64,000 nucleotides of DNA, taken from positions 99,014,001 to 99,078,000 of the forward strand of contig OZ360223.1 of NCBI GenBank assembly GCA_977017645.1, read 5' to 3'. Numbering within the stretch: the stretch's first letter is position 1; the number at the start of each line of letters is the position of its first letter. This stretch comes from Torpedo marmorata. Its lineage: Eukaryota. A program made the translations under genes and the position numbers. Below are positions 4,331 to 64,000 of this stretch, piece after piece. The notes under the pieces were generated by a model. It worked only from the letters and a program-made list of their open reading frames with translations, was not told the DNA's origin and ran no database searches.

Positions 4331-4675
4331 CCAACAAACCCATTCCAAAACATTGGGATCTTGGCCTCTATGCCCACCTTTGCAACTGAATCCGTGATTT
4401 CCTGTCTAATAGACCGCAATCAGTGAAGGTGGGGAATGGCATCTCCTCCACAATCACACTCAACACCGGCGCTCAAGGATGTGCCCTCAGTCCCCTGCTA
4501 CACTCCCTCTGCACCCATCACTGTACAGCTAAATACTGTTCCAACTCCATCTTCAAATTCACTAATGACACTACAGTGGGCCAGGTACCAAATAACAATG
4601 AGAGGGAGTACAGGGAAGAGATTGAACGCTTAGTGTCAGTGTGCCAAGTTAACAACCTCTCTCTCAACGTCAGTA

Positions 4676-4815
4676 TGACAAAGGAGATGATCACTGACTT
4701 GACAAAGGAGATGATCACTGACTTGACAAAGGAGATGATCACTGACTTGACAAAGGAGATGATCACTTGACAAAGGAGATGATCACTGACTTGACAAAGG
4801 AGATGATCACTGACT
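4676..4815 (+). repeat. 24-bp tandem repeat (tgacaaaggagatgatcactgact), ~6 copies
   Basis: Near-identical units, one shortened by 4 bp; expansion of the Rex1 TKEMITD motif. Confidence 0.95.
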
Positions 4816-5711
4816 TCAGGAGAGGGGGTAGAGACCACACCCCTGTCTACATTAATGGTGCTGAAGTTGAAGGAGTACAGAGCTTCAAGTACTGAGGCAT
4901 AAATATCCCAAATGAGCTGAACTGGTAGAAGCACGTTGATGTGTCAGTCAAGAAAGCATCGACACCTCAACTTTCTCAGTAGACTAAGGACGTTTAGCAT
5001 CTCCCCCTTGTCCTTCAACAACTTCTACAGGTGCACTATTGAAAGCAGATTCACTGGATGCATCACAGTGTGGGATGGGAGCTGCCTCACTCGAAGCTAC
5101 AGAAGGCAGTGAATGCAGTTCAGAACATCATGCAAACTTCCCTCACCTTCATGGACTCCATCTACATCTCCCTCTGCCTAGGAAAGGCAGCCAACACACT
5201 GAAGGACCCATCACACCCGGACATACTCTTTTCTACCTCCTCCCAACAGGAAAAGGCTTAAGAGCGTGAAAGCACCAGCAGGCTTAAATACAGTTTTCTT
5301 CTCTGTAGTCATCAGGCTCCTGAATGAACCCCAGAACTGTACTCTCAGGCTGCCCCTGCTTAGTGCTAATTGATCTTCCTTTTCATTGTAATCCAATATT
5401 CTATACATTGTGCTCTTTATGAATGAATGTTAGAAATAACTTGGAGTGCTCGCAGAAGAATCCTTCTCACTGTACTAGGTTTGTTTTGACAAAATCAACT
5501 TAAACATGGGGAAGATTGTCTGCACTGTTTAGCGATGGAGCCTGAAGGATTATTTACAACTGCCTGAGATGACATAATCTCCTTAATAAAATGTCATTAC
5601 ACTGCAGTACTAATTCTACCAAGATTACTGAAACCAATCAAAGACCAAATGAATAAAATCTGCTTTTGCTAATAAGTAATTCATTATTTTGATTAATATA
5701 ATAAAATATTT

Positions 5712-5950: not shown

Positions 5951-6509
5951 TTAAAAAGTTAATTAGCTTTTATGAAACACCTTGAAGACAGATATAGTTT
6001 ATAGATATATAAATGGGCAGTGGGAAAGCTAAAGGGAAAAAAATTACCAAAATTTCGAGAGACATCATTTGCCAAAATGTAATTTCAAACTTACTGCAAA
6101 GTCAATGTCAGCTCAGAGATTGCGGGGCGCATGGCCTGATCCCGTGCTGCACTGGTCTGTGTTCCAAACCAGGTGTTACCTCAGCTTGACAGATACAAAA
6201 AATAGTGCCTCTAACAACGTGGGTACGCTGGTTTTCTGCTCATGAGGCAAATGGTGAAGCTGGCCAGGGCTTCAGGAGAACTCTCCTGCCCTTCCAATCG
6301 CAACAGGGATTTGAATGACTCCAGTGCAGGCCGCATCACTCCTACGAACACAAGGCTTGTGATCCTGGGGTGGAGTGAAGCCGGGGACGCTCACCTACAA
6401 GCTGATCCACATCGCCTCCTCCCCTTCACATCGCGACAACCAACACTGCCCACCAACCCTCACACCAGAATCCCACTCCCAACAGCTGCTCCCCAGTCCT
6501 GGGAAGTGT

Positions 6510-7790
6510 GTGTGCGATAGGGTGAAACATTGGGAGGGGATGTGGGATAGGGTGTAACATGGGGAGGGGTGTGTGGGATTGTGTGTAACAAAGGGAGGGG
6601 TGTATATGGGATAGGGTGTAACACATGGGAGGGGTATGTGTGTGTTTCACTCTGGGAGGGGTGTGTATGGGACAGTGTTTCACACTGGGGGGGTGTGTGG
6701 GACTGTTTCACACTGGGAGGGTATGTGTGTGGGACTGTGTTTCACACTGGGAGGGGTGTGTGGGACTGTTTCAGACTGGAAGGGATGTATGTAGGACTGC
6801 ATTTCACACTAGGGGGTGTGTGGGACTGTGTTTCATACTGGGAAGGAGTGTGTGTGGGACTGTTTCACACAGGGAGCAGGTGTGTGTGGGACAGTGTTTT
6901 ACACGGAGGGTGTGTGTGTAGAACTGTGTTTCACACTGGGAGGGGTGTGTGGGACTGTGTTTCAGACTGGGAGGGATGTGTGTGGGACTGCATTTCATAC
7001 TAGGGGGTGTGTGGGACTGTTTCATACAGGGAAAGGGTGTGTGTGGGACTGTGTTCACACAGGGAGTGGGTTTGTTTGGGACTGTGTTTCACACTGGGAG
7101 GGGGTGTGTGGGAATGTGTTTCAGACTGGGAGGGATGTGTGTGGGACTGCATTTCACACTAGGGGGTGTATCGGACTGTGTTTCATACAGGGAAGGTGTG
7201 TGTGGGACTGTGTTTCACAGGGAGGGGGTGTGTGTGGGACTGACTGTGTAACACATGGAGGGTTGTGTGTAGGTAGTGTTTCACACTGGGAGGGGTGTAT
7301 GTGGGACTGTGTTTCACACTGGAAGGAGTGTGTGGCACTGTGTTTCATAATGGGAGGGGTGTGTGTGGGACCGTGTTTCACTCTGGGAGGGGTGTGTGTG
7401 GGACAGTGTTTCACACAGGGAGGGGGTGTGTGTGGGACAGTGTTTCACACAGGGAGGGGGTGTGTGTGGGACTGTGTTTCACACTGGGAGGGTTGTGTGT
7501 GGGTAGTGTTTCACATTGGGAGGGGTGTGTGTGGAACTGTGTTTCAAACTGGGAGGGGTGTGCAGGACTGTGTTTCAAACTGGGAGGGGTGTGTGGGACT
7601 GTGTTTCATGGAGGGGTGTGTGCGTGGGACTGTGCTTCACACTGGGAGAGGTGTGTGTGGGACTGCATTTCACACAGATGGGTGTGTGTGTGGGACTGTT
7701 TCACACAGGGAAGGGTTGTGTGGGCTTGTGTTTCACACTGGGAGAGGGTGCGTGGGACAGTGTTTCACACTGGGAGAGGGTGTGTGGGAT
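6510..7790 (+). repeat. G/T-rich minisatellite, ~33-37-bp unit (gggaggggtgtgtgtgggactgtgtttcacact)
   Basis: Dozens of tandem variant units; source of spurious ORFs. Confidence 0.95.
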
Positions 7791-7825
7791 GGTCCTCTCC
7801 GTTACTGTGGTGGGGCCAGACTTAC

Positions 7826-23180: not shown

Positions 23181-23699
23181 AGATGGAAGCACAAAAGGGT
23201 CTCTCCCTCTAAGCCTCGTCCCAATTAACCTTAGGTGTTGACTTCATTGATCCTTCCAAAGTAACTGTGATCTTAGTCCTCACCTATTTTGTAACACCTC
23301 GCATACTCCTTACTGACACATCCCCTGGTACTGCTGAAAACACATTAAAATCTCCCCTTTCCTAAAGAAATCAAAACTATTGCACAGAAATTCCAATCTG
23401 GCCTGTCAGGGGCCATTTCAATCATCATTCTGCTGCATTCAAATTTATTGGAGGGACTTGCAAGTTTTCCCCCTTGAAGGTACAACGTTGGGTTCTCCTC
23501 ACCCCAGGCCGTGTTCGGGAAGGCCAGTCCCGGGCCCCGAGAGGCTGATGATGGGTAGGCCCAAGATCAGCGAGTCAACCTCAATTCATTGGTGGGACGC
23601 CAGGAACCTTTTGTGTGGGATGGGAGTGGTAGAGGGTAGGAGAGAAAAATAATGCACCACCTGTTGAGTTTTGGGGAAGGGGTGGTGGGGAGTGAGAGA

Positions 23700-24325
23700 A
23701 ACTGTGCAGCACCTAATGTGGGATATAGGGAATGGGGGCAGTACCTGTTGTGGGATAAAGGGAATGGGGGCAGTACCCGTTGTGGGATAAAGGGAATGGG
23801 GGCAGTACCTGTTGTGGGATAAAGGGAATGGGGGCAACATCTAATGTAGGATAAAGGGAATAGGGGAAGCATGTGATGGGGGAAGGTAATGGAGGCAGCA
23901 CCTGTGGATGGGGGAAGGGAATTGGGGCAGCACCTGTGGATGGGGGAAGGGAATTGGGGCAGCACCTGTGGAGGGGAAGGGAATGGGGGCAGCACCTATA
24001 TAGGGGGAAGAAAATGGAGGCATCACCTGCGGTGGGGGGATGGAAATAGGGCAGCACCTGTGGTGGGGGAAGGAAATGGGGGCAGCACCTGTAGTTGGGG
24101 GGAAGGGAACGGGGCGGTGCCTGTGTTGGAGATGGGAATGGGGGCAGCACCTGTGGTGGGGGAAGGGAATGGCTGTAGCACCTGTTGTGGGGGGAAGGGA
24201 ATTGGGGCAGCACCTGTTATGGGGGAAGGGAATGGGGGCAGCGCCTGTGGTAGGGGGAAGGAAATGGGGGCAGCACCTGTGGAAGGGTGGAGGAAATGGG
24301 GGCAGCACCTGTGGTGGGGATGGGA
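23700..24325 (+). repeat. G-rich minisatellite, ~32-bp unit (gggaatgggggcagcacctgtggtgggggaa)
   Basis: About 19 tandem units with multiple G3-G5 runs and CACCTG. Confidence 0.95.
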
Positions 24326-24883
24326 GTTGCTTCGTAATTGAGTGTCGAGGTACTAGTCCTCTGCCCCTTATGACCGCTCCTATAGTTGCAGTGTGACAAG
24401 GGATAGACAGAGCAGGTAGAGAATAACCCCCCCACCCCACGCACTCAGTCGGGACAGTGGATGAACGGATGGCATGGGGAGGGGGAGAGCTGGTCTCTAC
24501 GATTAGGTAAGGTCCCGTGACATTGTTAGGCCTGATCCCAGCAGCAACACACCATTTCTATGAGGGATCGACTAGCGCGTTGAAACAGAAGAAGGATTTT
24601 GTAAAATTAAGCTGTGGCAGAGACCTTTAAAAGTCAGAGGCATCCAGTTAATGTTGCACTAACCTCGAGGTGAGGACATCACCAAAGTGATCTGCGATTA
24701 CTGAGGTCTGACTGTAACATCAAGTTGGCGTGAGATGGGGATGGTGAGGGGTTCCTTCAGACTCAAGCCTGCCCCTCCTCTTCTCACCTCACCCCTACTC
24801 CTTGTGAGCAAGCACTCCCACGGAAGAGAACTCTGCTTCCCAAGAGTTCTTCTGGTAAGGTGTAGAATAAAGGTGGACAGGAT

Positions 24884-26354: not shown

Positions 26355-27248
26355 TGCTGTTCACCCTGCTGACTCATGACTGTGCAGCAAAACACAGCTC
26401 AAATCACATCATAAAGTTCGCTGATGATACAACCGTGGTGGGCCTTATCAGTAAGAACGATGAGTCAGCATACAGAGATGAGGTGCAGTCGCTAATGGAA
26501 TGGTGCAGAAACAACAACCTGCAGCTGAACGTAAACAAAACAAAAGAGTTGGTTGTCGACTTCAGAAGGGCCCGGGGGATCATTCTCCTTTGACCATGGA
26601 CGGCTCTACCATTGAGGTCGTAAAGAGTACCAAGTTTCTTGGAGTGCACTTGGCGGAGAGTCTCACCTGGTCCCTCAACACCAGTTCCATAGTCAAGAAA
26701 GCCCAGCAGCGTCTTTACTTCCTGCGGAGACTGAGGAAAGTTCATCTCCCACCCCCTATCCTTACTACATTCTACAGGGGATGTATTGAGAGTATTCTGA
26801 GCAATTGCATCACCGCTTGGTTTGGTAACTGTACCATCTCGGACTGAAAGACCCTGCAGAGGATAGCGAGGTCAGCGGAGAAAATTATTGGAGTCTCTCT
26901 CCCCACCATGACAGACATCTACAACACACGATGCATGAGGAAGGCTAAAAACATTGTGAAGGACTTCTCACACCCCTTTGGTAAACTGTTTTCCCCTTTG
27001 CCATCTGGAAGGAGGTACCGAAGCACTCGGGCTCGTACGTCCAGACTGTGCAACAGTTTTTTCCCCCAAGCCATCAGGCTCCTCAATTCCTAGATATATA
27101 TGTGTATTAGCAAGTTATAGTTTTTTCTATTGTATTATGATATTTATGTACATCTGCCCACGGTCCTGGAGAAACGCTCTCTCATCTTACTGTGTATATG
27201 GTAATGAACGACAAATAAAGGTGACTTGACTTGACTTGACTTGACTTG
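26355..27248 (+). mobile_element. Rex1/Babar LINE, 5'-truncated, relatively young
   Basis: [46 protein letters not shown]; AATAAA plus (GACTT)n tail. Confidence 0.93.
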
Positions 27249-27556
27249 GTGTTTGGTCCTGGTGTTCGAGTGCTCATGCAGGTCTCTCCAAAATGATCTA
27301 ACAGCTTCTGCCTCCACCACCTTTCCAGCAGTGCTCCTGACCCTTTTCTGCCTTGGGTAACTTCCCTCAAGTCTATCCGCCAACTGAATCAAATCTAGTT
27401 GTCGCACTCTATGCTAGGGTCCTTCCTATTCGCCTCATCTCAGCACCATGATTATGTGCAGCTTCTTTGCTTCAAAAGAATTAACTCCAGCCCAGCCAGT
27501 ATCTTCACAACTATAATTCTCCAGTGTTGGCAACATCCTTATAAATTTGATGTAAC

Positions 27557-27778
27557 ATTTTAATTTTAATTATACAGCAGAATAGAAGGCCCTTCCGGCC
27601 CATGAAACCCGTGCTGCCCAATTAACCGACCAACCCCTTACGTTTTGGAATGTGGGAAGAAATCGGAGCATCCGGGGAAAACCCACACAGGTCATGGGGA
27701 GAATGTACAAATTCCTTGCAGACAGCGCCGGATTCGAACCCTGGTCGCTGGCGCTGTGATAGGATTGCGCTAACTGTG
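27557..27778 (-). mobile_element. V-SINE
   Basis: gacagcgccggattcgaaccctggtcgctggcgctg (reverse head). Confidence 0.85.
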
Positions 27779-28128
27779 GAACCCTACTCTGCTCTCTCCA
27801 GAATAGTGCTTCAGCTGCGGCTTCACTACTGTCTGAGAAACTTCCAGCAACATCCTCTGTCCTCCTTTATTCTGTTACTCAACTGAATGGTCAGGAGCCT
27901 CTCATCTACCTGTCCCACCACACTCACAGTTTTGTCGGCATGCAGTCTAAGGTCCCCCTGATCTACACTTCTTGGGTACTGTATTTACTGCTTATCTTGC
28001 ACCATTTGCTCTCCATTAATACATCCTACTACTCTTGGCAGGATTCTGTGTCCACTGGGCAACCCACGGATAATCTCACTGTAGCTTAGAACTCTTTCAC
28101 TGCCAACCACACTGCCCATTTTGATATA

Positions 28129-28830
28129 CAGTGAAACCCCGATTTTACGCGCCCCGATTTAACGCGAATTCAGATATAACGCAATGAGTCATTGGACCTG
28201 CTGATCAGCCTGCGCCGTCTGCCCGGCACCTGAAGTACACCGTCAGGCCCTCGGCCGCCGACACCCGCTGTGGCGACCGCTCCCGGATCCGGGGCTTGTG
28301 GCAGGCCAGCGAGTGGTGGAGTGCGGCGCCGCGGAACTCCGGCAGCCGGCTGCCCTGCAGGTCAGCTGGAGACGCGCACACCGGCGGCCGCTGGTTGAAG
28401 CTGAGAGCCGGGCTGGTCCGCAGCAGCCAGCACAGGCGGCAGTTGCAGCACGGCGGGTTGTTGTCCAGGCGCAGCATGGCCAGGCTGCGCGCTGACGGCA
28501 GTGTGCTCTCTTCCAGCATGGTCAGCGCGTGGCCAGCTCCCTCAGCTGTACAGCTGCCGAAGGTTCTGCTCCTGCAGGGAGCTGATGCCCAGGTAACGCA
28601 GCCGGAGTGTGGCCAGGTTGTGCAGGTAAGGCAGGGATTCGGCAGAAATGGAGGTGAGGCAGGTTGAACAAGTTGCCGAAAGGTTGAACAAGTTGCCGAA
28701 AGTGCCCGGTTCCATGCTGCTGATGATGTTCTCGCTGTATATGTAAGTAACCCCGATTTAGCGTGACCCCGCTTTTTTCGCGATGACATTTTATGGACCC
28801 AAACGATCGCGTTATAACGGGGTTTCACTG
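28129..28830. mobile_element. Non-autonomous Tc1/mariner (Tigger/pogo-like) TIR element carrying a captured gene fragment (Pack-TIR)
   Basis: TA-CAGTGAAACCCCGATTTTACGCG ... CGCGTTATAACGGGGTTTCACTG-TA; 23-bp TIRs with 3 mismatches; TA at 28127-28128 and 28831-28832; subterminal CCCCGATTT repeats. Confidence 0.9.
28205..28738 (-). pseudogene. Fragmented LINGO-family (LRR, LRRCT, start of Ig) coding sequence inside the TIR element
   Basis: Three segments: SENIISSMEPGTFGNLFNL; LTSISAESLPYLHNLATLRLRYLGISSLQEQNLRQLY; LTMLEESTLPSARSLAMLRLDNNPPCCNCRLCWLL...PVCASP...ACHKPRIRERSPQRVSAAEGLTVYFRCRADG. They resemble recalled LINGO1-3 in order, with frameshifts and internal deletions. Confidence 0.85.
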
Positions 28831-29844
28831 TAATTTGGTGCAGTAGCTCCCACATTTAAGACCAAGGGGGTCCCGTTGCTGAGGCCTGCGGAACCCCATT
28901 TACACCAGCACTCCTGCTAGAACTATCATCCTCCCCACCCAGTTCGTTTGGGTCTTACTGTTCTGATCAATCTGCCACTTCTTCAAACGTGTTGCTTAGA
29001 TCTAACATTAGGTGCACTACCCTCATTGGAAGATTCAGTTCAGTCAGCAAACAAAAACACCGGGTTCACTGCAGTCTAATCCCACCGGGGCTCTCTTGCT
29101 TGAGCATTTGTCCCTCCACACTCAAGCCCATCAGGGGAAAGGGTTGGAGGGATCTCTCTGCTGGACAACAACGAGCCGCAGGCAGCTCTGGTTGGTTTTT
29201 ACCTCTCTGTGAAGCCACCTACGGCACAGGTGGAGTGGGGATCAAAGGTGAGATCCTCTGGTCTGCGTAGCTCAAATTTACCTGCACATGGATGAGCCTT
29301 AGAGATCAGGAAAGGCCTGAGCAGAGTCAAACTATTTAAGATTTATGTTACTATTGACAAAAGTCTATCAATGTTTGACAGAATGTTGAACTACCTGTAT
29401 TATTGATCGATAGTTTGGGAGGGGAGGAACAAGTGGGCTCTGTTCCAGGTTTGACTCCAACAGCCGAGACCCATGGCCTTTTGGGGAAGGGAAATAGAAG
29501 CGCAGTGCCATGGTTATTCGAAGCGGAAGAAGCGGTTCCTACTGCCGGTGTATGGCATCACCTCGTTTGATATCTCTTACACATTGGGACTGATGAGATG
29601 AGAATCGAACACAAAACCACACTCTCCCTTCTCTCCCACCAACCTCTACTCAGGTTGTCAGAGGCCTGTGACTAGACCACTATTTACCATAGTGGGTTGG
29701 CAATGCCAGCATTTATTACTCATCCTTAAAATCCCTGGAGAAAGTGGCGGTGCACCACCGCCTTCTGTGTGGTGTGAAAAGGTAAGTTGGGAAATGGAAT
29801 AGTTTGTCCCATTCCAAGTTAGTTCCAGGAAATGGAAATCAAAA

Positions 29845-43476: not shown

Positions 43477-43739
43477 AGCTACACACCCTGATCCCCGGCT
43501 AATGTTGATGCTCCTTCCTGGGACACGGTGGAACTTCCGACTCCCCTCTCTATTGCTCACTCTCCTTCATGACCTTTCACATTCACAGGGATGGAAGGTC
43601 GGCTCTCAGTGCAACGTCCCTCTGGCAGACCAATGCTTCTGATGGTGTGGCATGCTCCCTGCATTTCCCAGCTACAATGCATACCCCTGCAGCTCCAAGG
43701 GTACTGCATTCACTCCCTGCCTCTCATGGCACAGCTCCC

Positions 43740-44200
43740 CCTCAGCATCTCCGAGGATGTGACGATCCCTCAATCCCTCCCAGGGTCCAGCGCTCCCTCA
43801 GCACTTCCAATGGTGAGGAGATCCTTCAATATCTATGAGGATGTGGAGATCCCTCAGTCCCTCTGAGAGAGTGGAGATCCCTCAGTACTTCCGGGCATCC
43901 AGAGACCCCCTTAGTGCCCTTGAGGATGTGGAGATCCCTCAATCCCTCCCTCAACATTTCCGAGGGTGATGAGACCCGTCAATACCCCCAAGGGTGTGGA
44001 GAACCCTCAGGACTTCCGAGGGCAAGGAGATCCCTCAGTACCCCCGAGGATGTGGAGATCCTTCAGCACTGAGGAGATCCCTCACTACCTCCTAGGGCGC
44101 AGAGGTCCCTCAGTACCCCCAAGGATGTGGAGATCCCTCAGTACATCTGAGGGTGCGGAGATCCCTCAGTAACTCTAAGGCTGTGGAGGTCCCTCAGCAT
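43740..44200 (+). repeat. ~29-bp minisatellite (gaggatgtggagatccctcagtacccc)
   Basis: Diverged tandem units. Confidence 0.88.
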
Positions 44201-44949: not shown

Positions 44950-45280
44950 GAGAGAGAAAGAGAGAGTGAGTAAGAGAAAGAGAGAGAGAGGGAGAGAGGG
45001 GAAGAGGGAAAGAGAGAGAGAGGGAGAAAGAGAGGGGGGTCAGAGAGAGAGAGAGAGGGGGAAAGAGAGAGGGAAAGAGAGAGAAAGAAAGAGAGAGAGA
45101 GAGGGAGAGAGAGAGTCAGAGAGAGGAAGGAAGNNNNNNNNNNNNNNNNNNNNNNNNNNNNNNNNNNNNNNNNNNNNNNNNNNNNNNNNNNNNNNNNNNN
45201 NNNNNNNNNNNNNNNNNNNNNNNNNNNNNNNNNNNNNNNNNNNNNNNNNNNNNNNNNNNNNNNNNNNNNNNNNNNNNNNN
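44950..45280. other. (GA)-rich microsatellite running into a 147-N assembly gap (45134-45280)
   Basis: Direct observation; no SRGAP3 exon appears to be missing across the gap. Confidence 0.97.
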
Positions 45281-62312: not shown

Positions 62313-62649
62313 CTGTGAACAATGGAAAAAAAACAGGATGTTGAGTCCACACTGCCCTCTCTGTGACACTGCACCTGGGAATGTCAGGAGCTGGAAACTT
62401 ACCAGCAGATAACAGCACTAAACGCATCAAAAGGATTCAGCAGGCAAAATCACACCTCTGTAATTCATTCCTGTGGAGGAGTTTAGGAGCAGTATTCCAG
62501 ATTTCCTTTCCTCCGCAAAGGGGAAGTGGGTCTTGATCATTTTTAGCTTGTCCAGCAATAATTTTAGGATTAAGCCTCTTTGCTTTGGATTCCAGAAAAT
62601 TCTCAAATCCTTTCCTCAAATTATATCACACCTATTTTTAGTGCCCTGA

Positions 62650-64000
62650 ACGCCCATCTGGTGCTGTGTGTAGCCCTGACACCATGCCGGTGCTGCATGT
62701 AGCCCTTAACGCCCATCTGGTGCTGCGTGTAGCCCTGAACACCCATCTGGTGCTGCGTGTAGCCCTGACACCATGCCGGTGCTGCGTGTAGCCTTTAACG
62801 CCCACCTGGTGCTGTGTGTAATCCTGATGCCATGCCGGTGCTGTGTGTAGCCCTTAACGCCCATCTGGTGCTGCGTGTAGCCCTGACACCATGCCGGTGC
62901 TGCGTGTAGCCCTTAACACCCATCTAGTGATGTGTGTAACCCTGATGCCATACCGGTACTGCGTGTAGCCCTTAACGCCCATCTGGTCTTGTGTGTAGTC
63001 CTTAAAGACTACCTGGTGCTTTAAATGGCCTGTAAAAGGAGATAACGGTGTTTTTAATTAAAATCCTGCAACTGTGGGGTCTGTGCCCAAGATGGCGGTG
63101 CCTGTGCTCAGCAGCGGCCATGACGGGTTGCAGACACTGGGGGAATAGCAGAAATGGGGAGAACACCTCCCGTTGAGAAGGAGAAGCAGAGTAGACGACC
63201 CTACAGGGAAGGTAACCACGGCAGCAGACCAGCAAGCGGCCCAGCGACTGAAGGACCCACACAGGCTGCGGGCGACTTGCTGTTGGGGGACCCCCACGTG
63301 CTGCTGGAGACTGGCTCATGGGAACCAGGTAACAGAACCGGTATTCGAATGGGTGCTGAGGGCAAGAAGGGTACCCGAAGGGCCTCGGGCTCTGAAGGCT
63401 TCCTGATCGTGTTGGAGGTTTGGATCTGGAGCTTGGATTGCCGATGAATCCAACAGGAGTCTGTGCAGCTGCAGAGGCTGCGGGAGCGCTGGAGGCAAAT
63501 CCATCGACACTCAGTGACCCTGAAGGGACTCTCTTTTGCTTCTCTTTCTCCTCTTGTTCGGGGCACCGGGCGATGTTCATGGAGATACTTTGCCTTACGG
63601 CAGACATAAGTTGAAGTATATCATGCATGTTAAATTTTTATGTATTATTATGTAACAATAAAAGAAACCTTGGTGCTATGTGTAGCTTTAACACGTGTCT
63701 GGTGTTACCTGTAGCCCTAACACTGGGCCGGCGTTGTGTGTAGACCAAACGCCCAGCCAGTACTGTGTGTAGACCTAACGCCCAGCTGGTGCTGTGTGCA
63801 GACCTAACGCCCAGCCAGTGCTGTGTGTAGACCTAACGCCCAGCCAGTACTGTGTGTAGACCTAACGCCCACCTGGTGATGTGTGCAGACCTAATGCCCA
63901 GCCAGTGCTGTGTGTAGACCAAACGCTCAGCCAGTACTGTGTAGACCAAACGCCCAGCTGGTGCTGTGTGTAGACCTAACGCCTAGCTGGTGCTGTGTGT
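62650..64000 (+). repeat. ~31-32-bp minisatellite (gcccatctggtgctgtgtgtagcccttaac / gcccagccagtgctgtgtgtagacctaac), interrupted at 63021-63670
   Basis: Tandem units on both sides of the insert; runs off the window end. Confidence 0.9.
63021..63670 (+). mobile_element. GC-rich non-coding retroposon, longest copy (3)
   Basis: Contains CAAGATGGCGG near its 5' end; ends with AATAAA; inserted in the minisatellite. Confidence 0.72.

Follow-up and report, generated by a model that had tools for sequence, protein, structure and literature searches.

How does a short DNA transposon come to carry separated pieces of a host gene, in the order of the gene but without the sequence that lies between them? 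A locus in a 64,000-nt stretch of Torpedo marmorata DNA (contig OZ360223.1; hereafter the window) raises this question. An earlier note, made from the letters alone, recognised minus-strand blocks of a LINGO coding sequence inside a MITE-sized element, with several leucine-rich repeats (LRRs) missing between them, and proposed template jumping during gap repair at capture or later deletions. We investigated the element, its donor gene, its parent and its copies, and used the junctions between the pieces to weigh these explanations.

Structure of the element and source of its cargo

The locus is a 702-bp non-autonomous element, probably of the Tigger/pogo type, flanked by TA at window positions 28129-28830 and bearing 13-bp terminal inverted repeats (TIRs) at both termini. 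See Table 1 for the coordinates of all parts. Both ends derive from one TIR element, a parent of 1.82-1.90 kb with the same two ends that is complete at 8 of the 14 loci examined. The LINGO-carrying element keeps 82 + 69 = 151 of the parent's 1898 bp (8%), so that 92% is gone, and its cargo is oriented opposite to the parent's transposase direction. A related copy (L072), which resembles the 1.9-kb parents at 89% over 1.2 kb, encodes a DDE_1 domain (PF03184; E 6e-12). We place the parent in Tigger/pogo by this domain, the TA target and the short TIR starting with CAGT, which are features of that group; the subfamily name is a probable one.

Table 1. Coordinates of the element, its cargo and its junction features in the window.
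Feature	Position	Strand	Remark
TA target-site duplication, low side	28127..28128	.	TA on both sides in 29/30 aligned copies
69-bp element end = parent 5' end (parent 1-69)	28129..28197	-	13-bp terminal inverted repeat and subterminal repeats inside
Piece 4 = LINGO3 CDS 1368-1385 (within Ig domain)	28198..28215	-	18/18 identical to donor
Piece 3 = LINGO3 CDS 1016-1333 (last LRR, LRRCT, Ig start)	28213..28530	-	94.3% to donor; family majority 99.4%
Junction 2	28520..28541	-	5-bp microhomology and 11-bp tandem repeat present in most copies
Piece 2 = LINGO3 CDS 588-715	28533..28659	-	96.1% to donor; family majority 99.2%
Piece 1 = LINGO3 CDS 288-346	28659..28737	-	joined to piece 2 via 1 shared base
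Exact 20-bp tandem duplication	28661..28702	-	2-bp microhomology; 1/59 copies
Left-edge filler, 11 bp	28738..28748	-	9 bp in most copies
82-bp element end = parent 3' end (parent 1817-1898)	28749..28830	-	with terminal inverted repeat
TA target-site duplication, high side	28831..28832	.	

The cargo, ~519-520 bp in total, consists of four pieces in donor order and spans 1098 bp of the donor (47%). The translated blocks lie on the minus strand where they had been reported and map to one LINGO3 reading frame. The description as a collinear mosaic was correct in its order and short by one in its count of three pieces, as a fourth piece follows after a 37-nt gap. The translation of piece 3 matches LINGO1 in the PDB over residues 308-411 (E 1e-22), and pieces 1 and 2 correspond to LINGO1 residues 64-84 and 157-200. 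A protein search with piece 3 returned no longer homologue at E 1e-15, and a search with representatives returned 53 relatives without names.

The donor lies on another contig (C54), where a 614-aa reading frame without interruption aligns to LINGO1 in one stretch and contains the LRRs that are missing from the element. Neither of the outcomes that the earlier note had named as fatal to its reading, pieces from different genes or out of order and a donor that itself lacks the intervening LRRs, was seen. Among the top 120 matches to the donor, many of them with cut names, every readable paralog number is 3, and the best match with a readable species name is from the chimaera Callorhinchus; on these best matches, the donor can be assigned to LINGO3 rather than LINGO1 or LINGO2. 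Over about 520 positions, the family majority and the donor disagree at 3 (~99% identity), and two LINGO paralogs elsewhere in the genome show 70-83% identity to the cargo. Furthermore, a pattern extending past piece 3 as the gene would has one match, the donor locus. With identities to the donor of 94-100%, a chance match of the pieces can be excluded, and element, donor and junctions are identified with near certainty. No element end or parent match was found around the donor in 21 stretches covering ~210 kb, and thus no founder was seen near the gene. Donor CDS 1051-1500 (L031) is 73-77% GC and CpG-rich, with its CpGs kept; the copies have lost ~12-13% at CpG sites.

The same two ends enclose several fillers besides LINGO3, as seen in a pattern search that excluded parent-like continuations. 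A minimal MITE of 162-177 bp (L040, L048, L049, L057, L059, L060, L062, L066) has a left half that ends in a second terminal repeat, a TA and ~18 bp of other DNA. One sibling group holds short GC-rich repeats and another a long internal inverted repeat (groups L039, L041, L042, L043, L054, L056; L045, L050, L052, L055, L063, L068); the GC-rich group presumably carries the end of another Tigger-type element. A 740-bp sibling (L044), with ~580 bp of filler that does not resemble the parent, may represent a second host capture.

Elsewhere, the window holds minisatellite arrays with units of 24-33 bp (6500-7800, 23680-24360, 43680-44200, 62630-64000 and 4673-4840) and a run of N at 45134-45280. 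Positions 26500-27100 form a candidate 3' end with a short tandem tail, which we take to be LINE-like, and about eight dispersed repeats of 100-180 bp (for example 27552-27750) are presumably SINE-like.

Copy number, decay and relatives of the family

A DNA search of the 6.2-Gb genome with the element gave 2747 candidates, the best 40 of which were scored; the 39 other than the query are 86-91% alike over almost their whole length of ~680 bp. An exact 25-mer across junction 1 occurs at 269 places and a left-edge pattern at 281. In five fully listed contigs, 44 of 75 left-edge matches have an adjoining junction-1 match (hand count against 96 junction-1 matches). From this overlap the family can be put at about 450-600 copies, which agrees with the loss that divergence would cause. 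Divergence of single copies from the family majority is 1.9-2.4% outside CpG positions and 11-13% within them, and a tree of copies is mostly star-like.

Junctions were compared in 59 copies, comprising the 30 best-scored, 28 sampled by position (two duplicates dropped) and L064. A 92-bp deletion with 4-bp microhomology founded a nested short subfamily (L082-L087, L093, L096, L097, L102, L103), which makes up 11 of the 28 position-sampled copies and gives 53 pattern matches. Its members have lost piece 4 together with the end of piece 3 and 13 bp of the right end, and they coexist with their longer parent form. Some short-subfamily variants cross subfamily borders, which hints at exchange between copies or repeated mutation. 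Another variant (L098, L155) lacks most of piece 1, and the position of its joints coincides in three runs.

We estimated dN/dS against the donor, as the earlier note had suggested. The ratio in the donor frame is 0.90 (0.77-1.06) after three inherited subfamily variants were left out (0.84 at first pass), and five control frames give 0.89-1.19. Selection on the cargo frame was rejected, as the interval includes 1 and the value falls within the control frames. Frame-breaking gaps in piece 3 are present in 21 of the 59 copies, truncated ones included. The copies appear to decay neutrally without protein function, the element most likely makes no protein, and no sign of a function for the cargo was seen. 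No RNA data set was among the records listed as containing the sequence, a result that is uninformative as to expression.

MITEs are short, TIR-bounded, non-coding elements of high copy number and uniform length. The LINGO3 family is short, bounded by TIRs, present in high copy and uniform in length, with a cargo frame free of selection. The same criteria are given in PMC5172404.

The family is found beyond the host. In two other organisms (B and E), contigs run from the element ends into the cargo, and in E they also cross junction 2. In a third (H), the element ends are present with no cover over the cargo. Among the records listed for the other organisms, none spans junction 1 with 31 letters to either side.

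Junctions and the mechanism of capture

The gaps at junctions 1, 2 and 3 are 242, 298-309 and 37 nt long, and the skips of 242, 298 and 37 nt are all out of frame. The first two amount to ~3.4 and 4.2 LRR lengths, in agreement with the reported absence of several LRRs between the blocks. A cargo taken from processed RNA after removal of cryptic introns would consist of collinear pieces of one gene, which is what splicing gives, and recombination between LRR repeats is another conceivable source of gaps. However, we regard both as extremely improbable. The donor is a single exon over the captured span, where its frame is unbroken; neither GT-AG nor GC-AG borders occur at the gaps, whichever strand and equivalent cut is taken; and there is no poly-A within the 702-bp element. 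Canonical splicing, already dismissed by the earlier note, was therefore rejected, and the element is not a retrocopy. LRR-register recombination was likewise rejected, since the gaps measure 3.36, 4.14-4.29 and 0.51 LRR lengths and are thus out of register.

Two features that had drawn attention in the window copy read differently when set against the family. The tandem duplicate at 28661-28700 is indeed an exact 20-bp copy, but since it occurs in only one of the 59 copies it is not a feature of the capture. Junction 1 is out of frame family-wide, and the window copy reads through from piece 1 to piece 2 because this private duplication restores the frame. What had been described as one frameshift has two separate components: the window copy lacks 1 bp at 28546/28547, a deletion shared by 2 of 30 aligned copies, and the whole family changes frame at junction 2.

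The microhomology expected at the junctions is present, though modest, at 1, 5 and 3 bp for junctions 1, 2 and 3, the third junction being an addition to the original two. A joint test gives a Fisher p of 0.016, which rests mainly on junction 2 and was chosen after the data were seen; the match at junction 1 taken singly is at chance level (p 0.48). Junction 2 counts as 5 bp only when an 11-bp repeat is treated as a separate step. This repeat is doubled in its common state, single in 7-8 of 59 copies and tripled in one. Copies with the single state are scattered over both filler types and both length classes, and they likely reflect recurrent collapse of the repeat. Junction 2 reads best as a jump at 5-bp microhomology, after which synthesis slipped 11 bp backwards on a 4-bp repeat of the donor.

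The left edge of the cargo is joined to the 82-bp end by a short filler. It is confined to LINGO3-carrying elements (5/5 matches with a pattern built to find it elsewhere), and the 11-bp form as a whole is absent from the parent majority and from the 9.9-kb donor CDS region on the cargo strand. Among the first 100 left-edge matches, a hand count gave 62 with the 9-bp and 38 with the 11-bp form; the latter may be the older type because it is prevalent in contigs of two other organisms. Eight nucleotides of the 9-bp filler match inverted donor 582-589 (null p ~0.015, tested after the match was seen), compared with just 6 nt for the 11-bp filler (null ~0.11). The inverted match, an exact one to the opposite strand of the donor, spans the junction-1 breakpoint, and we treat it as only a lead.

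The comparison of junctions among copies that the earlier note had recommended shows that the three main junctions predate amplification. The note had also foreseen longer copies as intermediates, and none were found. Neither the two large skipped segments nor the 3' part of the donor had matches other than the donor and the two paralogs (3/3 candidates each). For the donor 5' part, of which the best 40 of 1904 candidates were scored, only the donor itself and an upstream repeat unrelated to it came up. As the junctions are older than the amplification and no intermediate was seen, template jumping at capture is favoured, and we give discontinuous copying in a single repair event at LINGO3 capture a probability of roughly 60%.

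Under this reading, excision of a Tigger/pogo element would have been followed by repair synthesis that rebuilt ~80 and ~70 bp of the two ends and then strayed onto the LINGO3 exon. The template would have been lost and regained three times further along, via 1-5 bp of homology, with one re-priming 11 bp back at junction 2. The product, having kept both ends, could then have been spread by the parent's transposase. Two signs of synthesis are consistent with this course: the 11-bp repeat is explained by slippage on a 4-bp repeat that is present in the donor and absent from a singly deleted element, and the filler is unique to LINGO3-carrying elements. Furthermore, excision-induced abortive gap repair is expected to give end-biased retention, according to Tan et al. 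(PMC8277862), and the 151 of 1898 parental bp kept at the ends fits that pattern.

Evidence against a one-step origin is that the LINGO3 family makes later deletions and amplifies them, and the lack of a founder in the ~210 kb around the donor also counts against it. A contiguous 1.1-kb LINGO3 capture may instead have undergone three deletions in quick rounds of excision and abortive gap repair, the longer forms never being fixed. The same process is seen later, in the nested short subfamily and in the variant without most of piece 1. Siblings L047, L051 and L061 are likewise multi-piece derivatives of the parent in collinear order (parent 1898-1800, 1749-1694, 573-441, 70-1), and microhomology-mediated miniaturisation is described for Tc1/mariner MITEs (PMC3814204). 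However, no copy contains any skipped segment, whereas the later derivatives coexist with their longer parents, and secondary deletions in the 59 copies reach 103 bp at most, compared with 242 bp at junction 1 and ~300 bp at junction 2. The absence of intermediates is not proof, as rare ones could be lost by drift. We consider such rapid serial deletion a serious but distinctly less probable origin. For junctions 1-3 the separation of the two mechanisms is incomplete; of the alternatives first proposed, jumping is favoured for these three, and later deletion is demonstrated only for the younger junction of the short subfamily.

The CpG content of the master copy bears on the timing. The master differs from the donor by 1 CpG change in 114 CpG positions, compared with 13% decay in the copies, which implies little time between capture and spread. 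It is accordingly very improbable that a single resting copy with contiguous cargo slowly lost three segments and was then amplified. Deletions of at least 30 bp do occur, with up to 7 distinct events in the 28 position-sampled copies, and in an unmethylated master the CpG clock would stand still. On the other hand, the master's one change corresponds to 7% of the family age (upper bound 37%), for which the Poisson probability of three deletions is 7e-6 to 1e-3, rising to 0.009 at 80% of the family age. The clock rules out slow decay in a resting copy only, not fast rounds during a burst.

Equally improbable, in our view, is that two elements inserted close together in the LINGO3 exon, lost the ends facing each other and carried off the intervening DNA as a hybrid element, with deletions afterwards. 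This model was put forward for Pack-CACTA and observed in part in Arabidopsis (PMC6379663); host DNA enclosed between the two parent ends is the structure it would yield. However, the cargo edges in the donor CDS do not lie at TA, no element end is near the donor, and the internal junctions and filler would still need another process.

In its fullest form, which is tentative, discontinuous copying at capture would have jumped forward three times, re-primed backward once and made an inverted excursion, all within a single Tigger excision repair, and would have given rise to a cut-and-paste family of ~500 gene-carrying copies common to several related organisms. If true, the family would be a natural, datable record of TIR gene capture as one-step serial template switching, in a class that Pack-TIR pipelines filter out.

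Comparison with known systems

How TIR elements take up host DNA is still debated on the basis of few cases, and animal captures of the multicopy kind are reported as rare and low in copy number. Here, the donor, the parent, hundreds of copies and the junction scars are present in one genome, with relatives with and without the cargo, so that template switching at capture can be tested directly against later deletion. No report of a LINGO3-carrying family was found in a literature search that lay mostly outside subscription journals, and none of the papers on LINGO3 and transposons, judged by title or the start of the abstract, concerns capture.

The closest counterparts are the multicopy Pack-TIRs of animals, as presented by Tan et al. 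2021 (PMC8277862). These share TIR ends around host DNA, a clear parental locus, the TcMariner superfamily, short microhomology at the edges and multicopy members far from the parent; Pack-Tigger1 is a single-copy Tigger case. By the definitions used there, the LINGO3 element carries ~520 bp of non-TE DNA (range 100-5000 bp) that is 99% identical to LINGO3 (cut-off 90%), 30 aligned copies have unrelated flanks, and the parental locus is without element flanks, which distinguishes it from a segmental duplication. However, 4 of the 370 cases in that paper are multicopy, and the LINGO3 family, at ~450-600 copies, exceeds the one shown, which has 3, about a hundredfold. Pack-TIRs there replace a median 4.6% of the element, whereas 92% of the parent is gone here. 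Their pipeline filter requires cargo of 80-120% of the parental span with a unique top match and guards against later indels; the LINGO3 cargo, at 519/1098 bp, reaches 47%. We regard that length filter as a detection rule and not a biological trait. The LINGO3 element is a multicopy Pack-TIR in its working, a variant and not a plain member, and fragmented high-copy captures of this kind would slip through a published pipeline.

The MITEs Gnome, Elf and Goblin, derived from Ozma (Yang et al. 2013, PMC3814204), also comprise several short families from one Tc1/mariner-type parent, with junction microhomology and small insertions for which template switching is proposed; filler capture from other loci is a named outcome of SDSA in that account. 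Unlike these MITEs, whose internal DNA comes from the parent element, the LINGO3 element contains a host exon in four pieces.

Helitrons move by rolling-circle transposition, without TA duplications or TIRs, whereas the LINGO3 element is of the cut-and-paste kind. Those of bats are likewise vertebrate DNA transposons that amplify captured gene pieces to high copy, and Thomas et al. 2014 (PMC4224331) leave capture versus later deletion open for one subfamily. The Pack-TYPE elements of plants (Pack-MULE, Pack-CACTA; PMC6379663, PMC13317346) share non-autonomous TIR elements that move gene fragments. They belong to another superfamily and kingdom, and the LINGO3 pieces all come from one exon in order, which the paired-insertion model fits poorly. 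Among Pack-TIRs, the LINGO3 element is unusual in both its copy number and its fragmentation.
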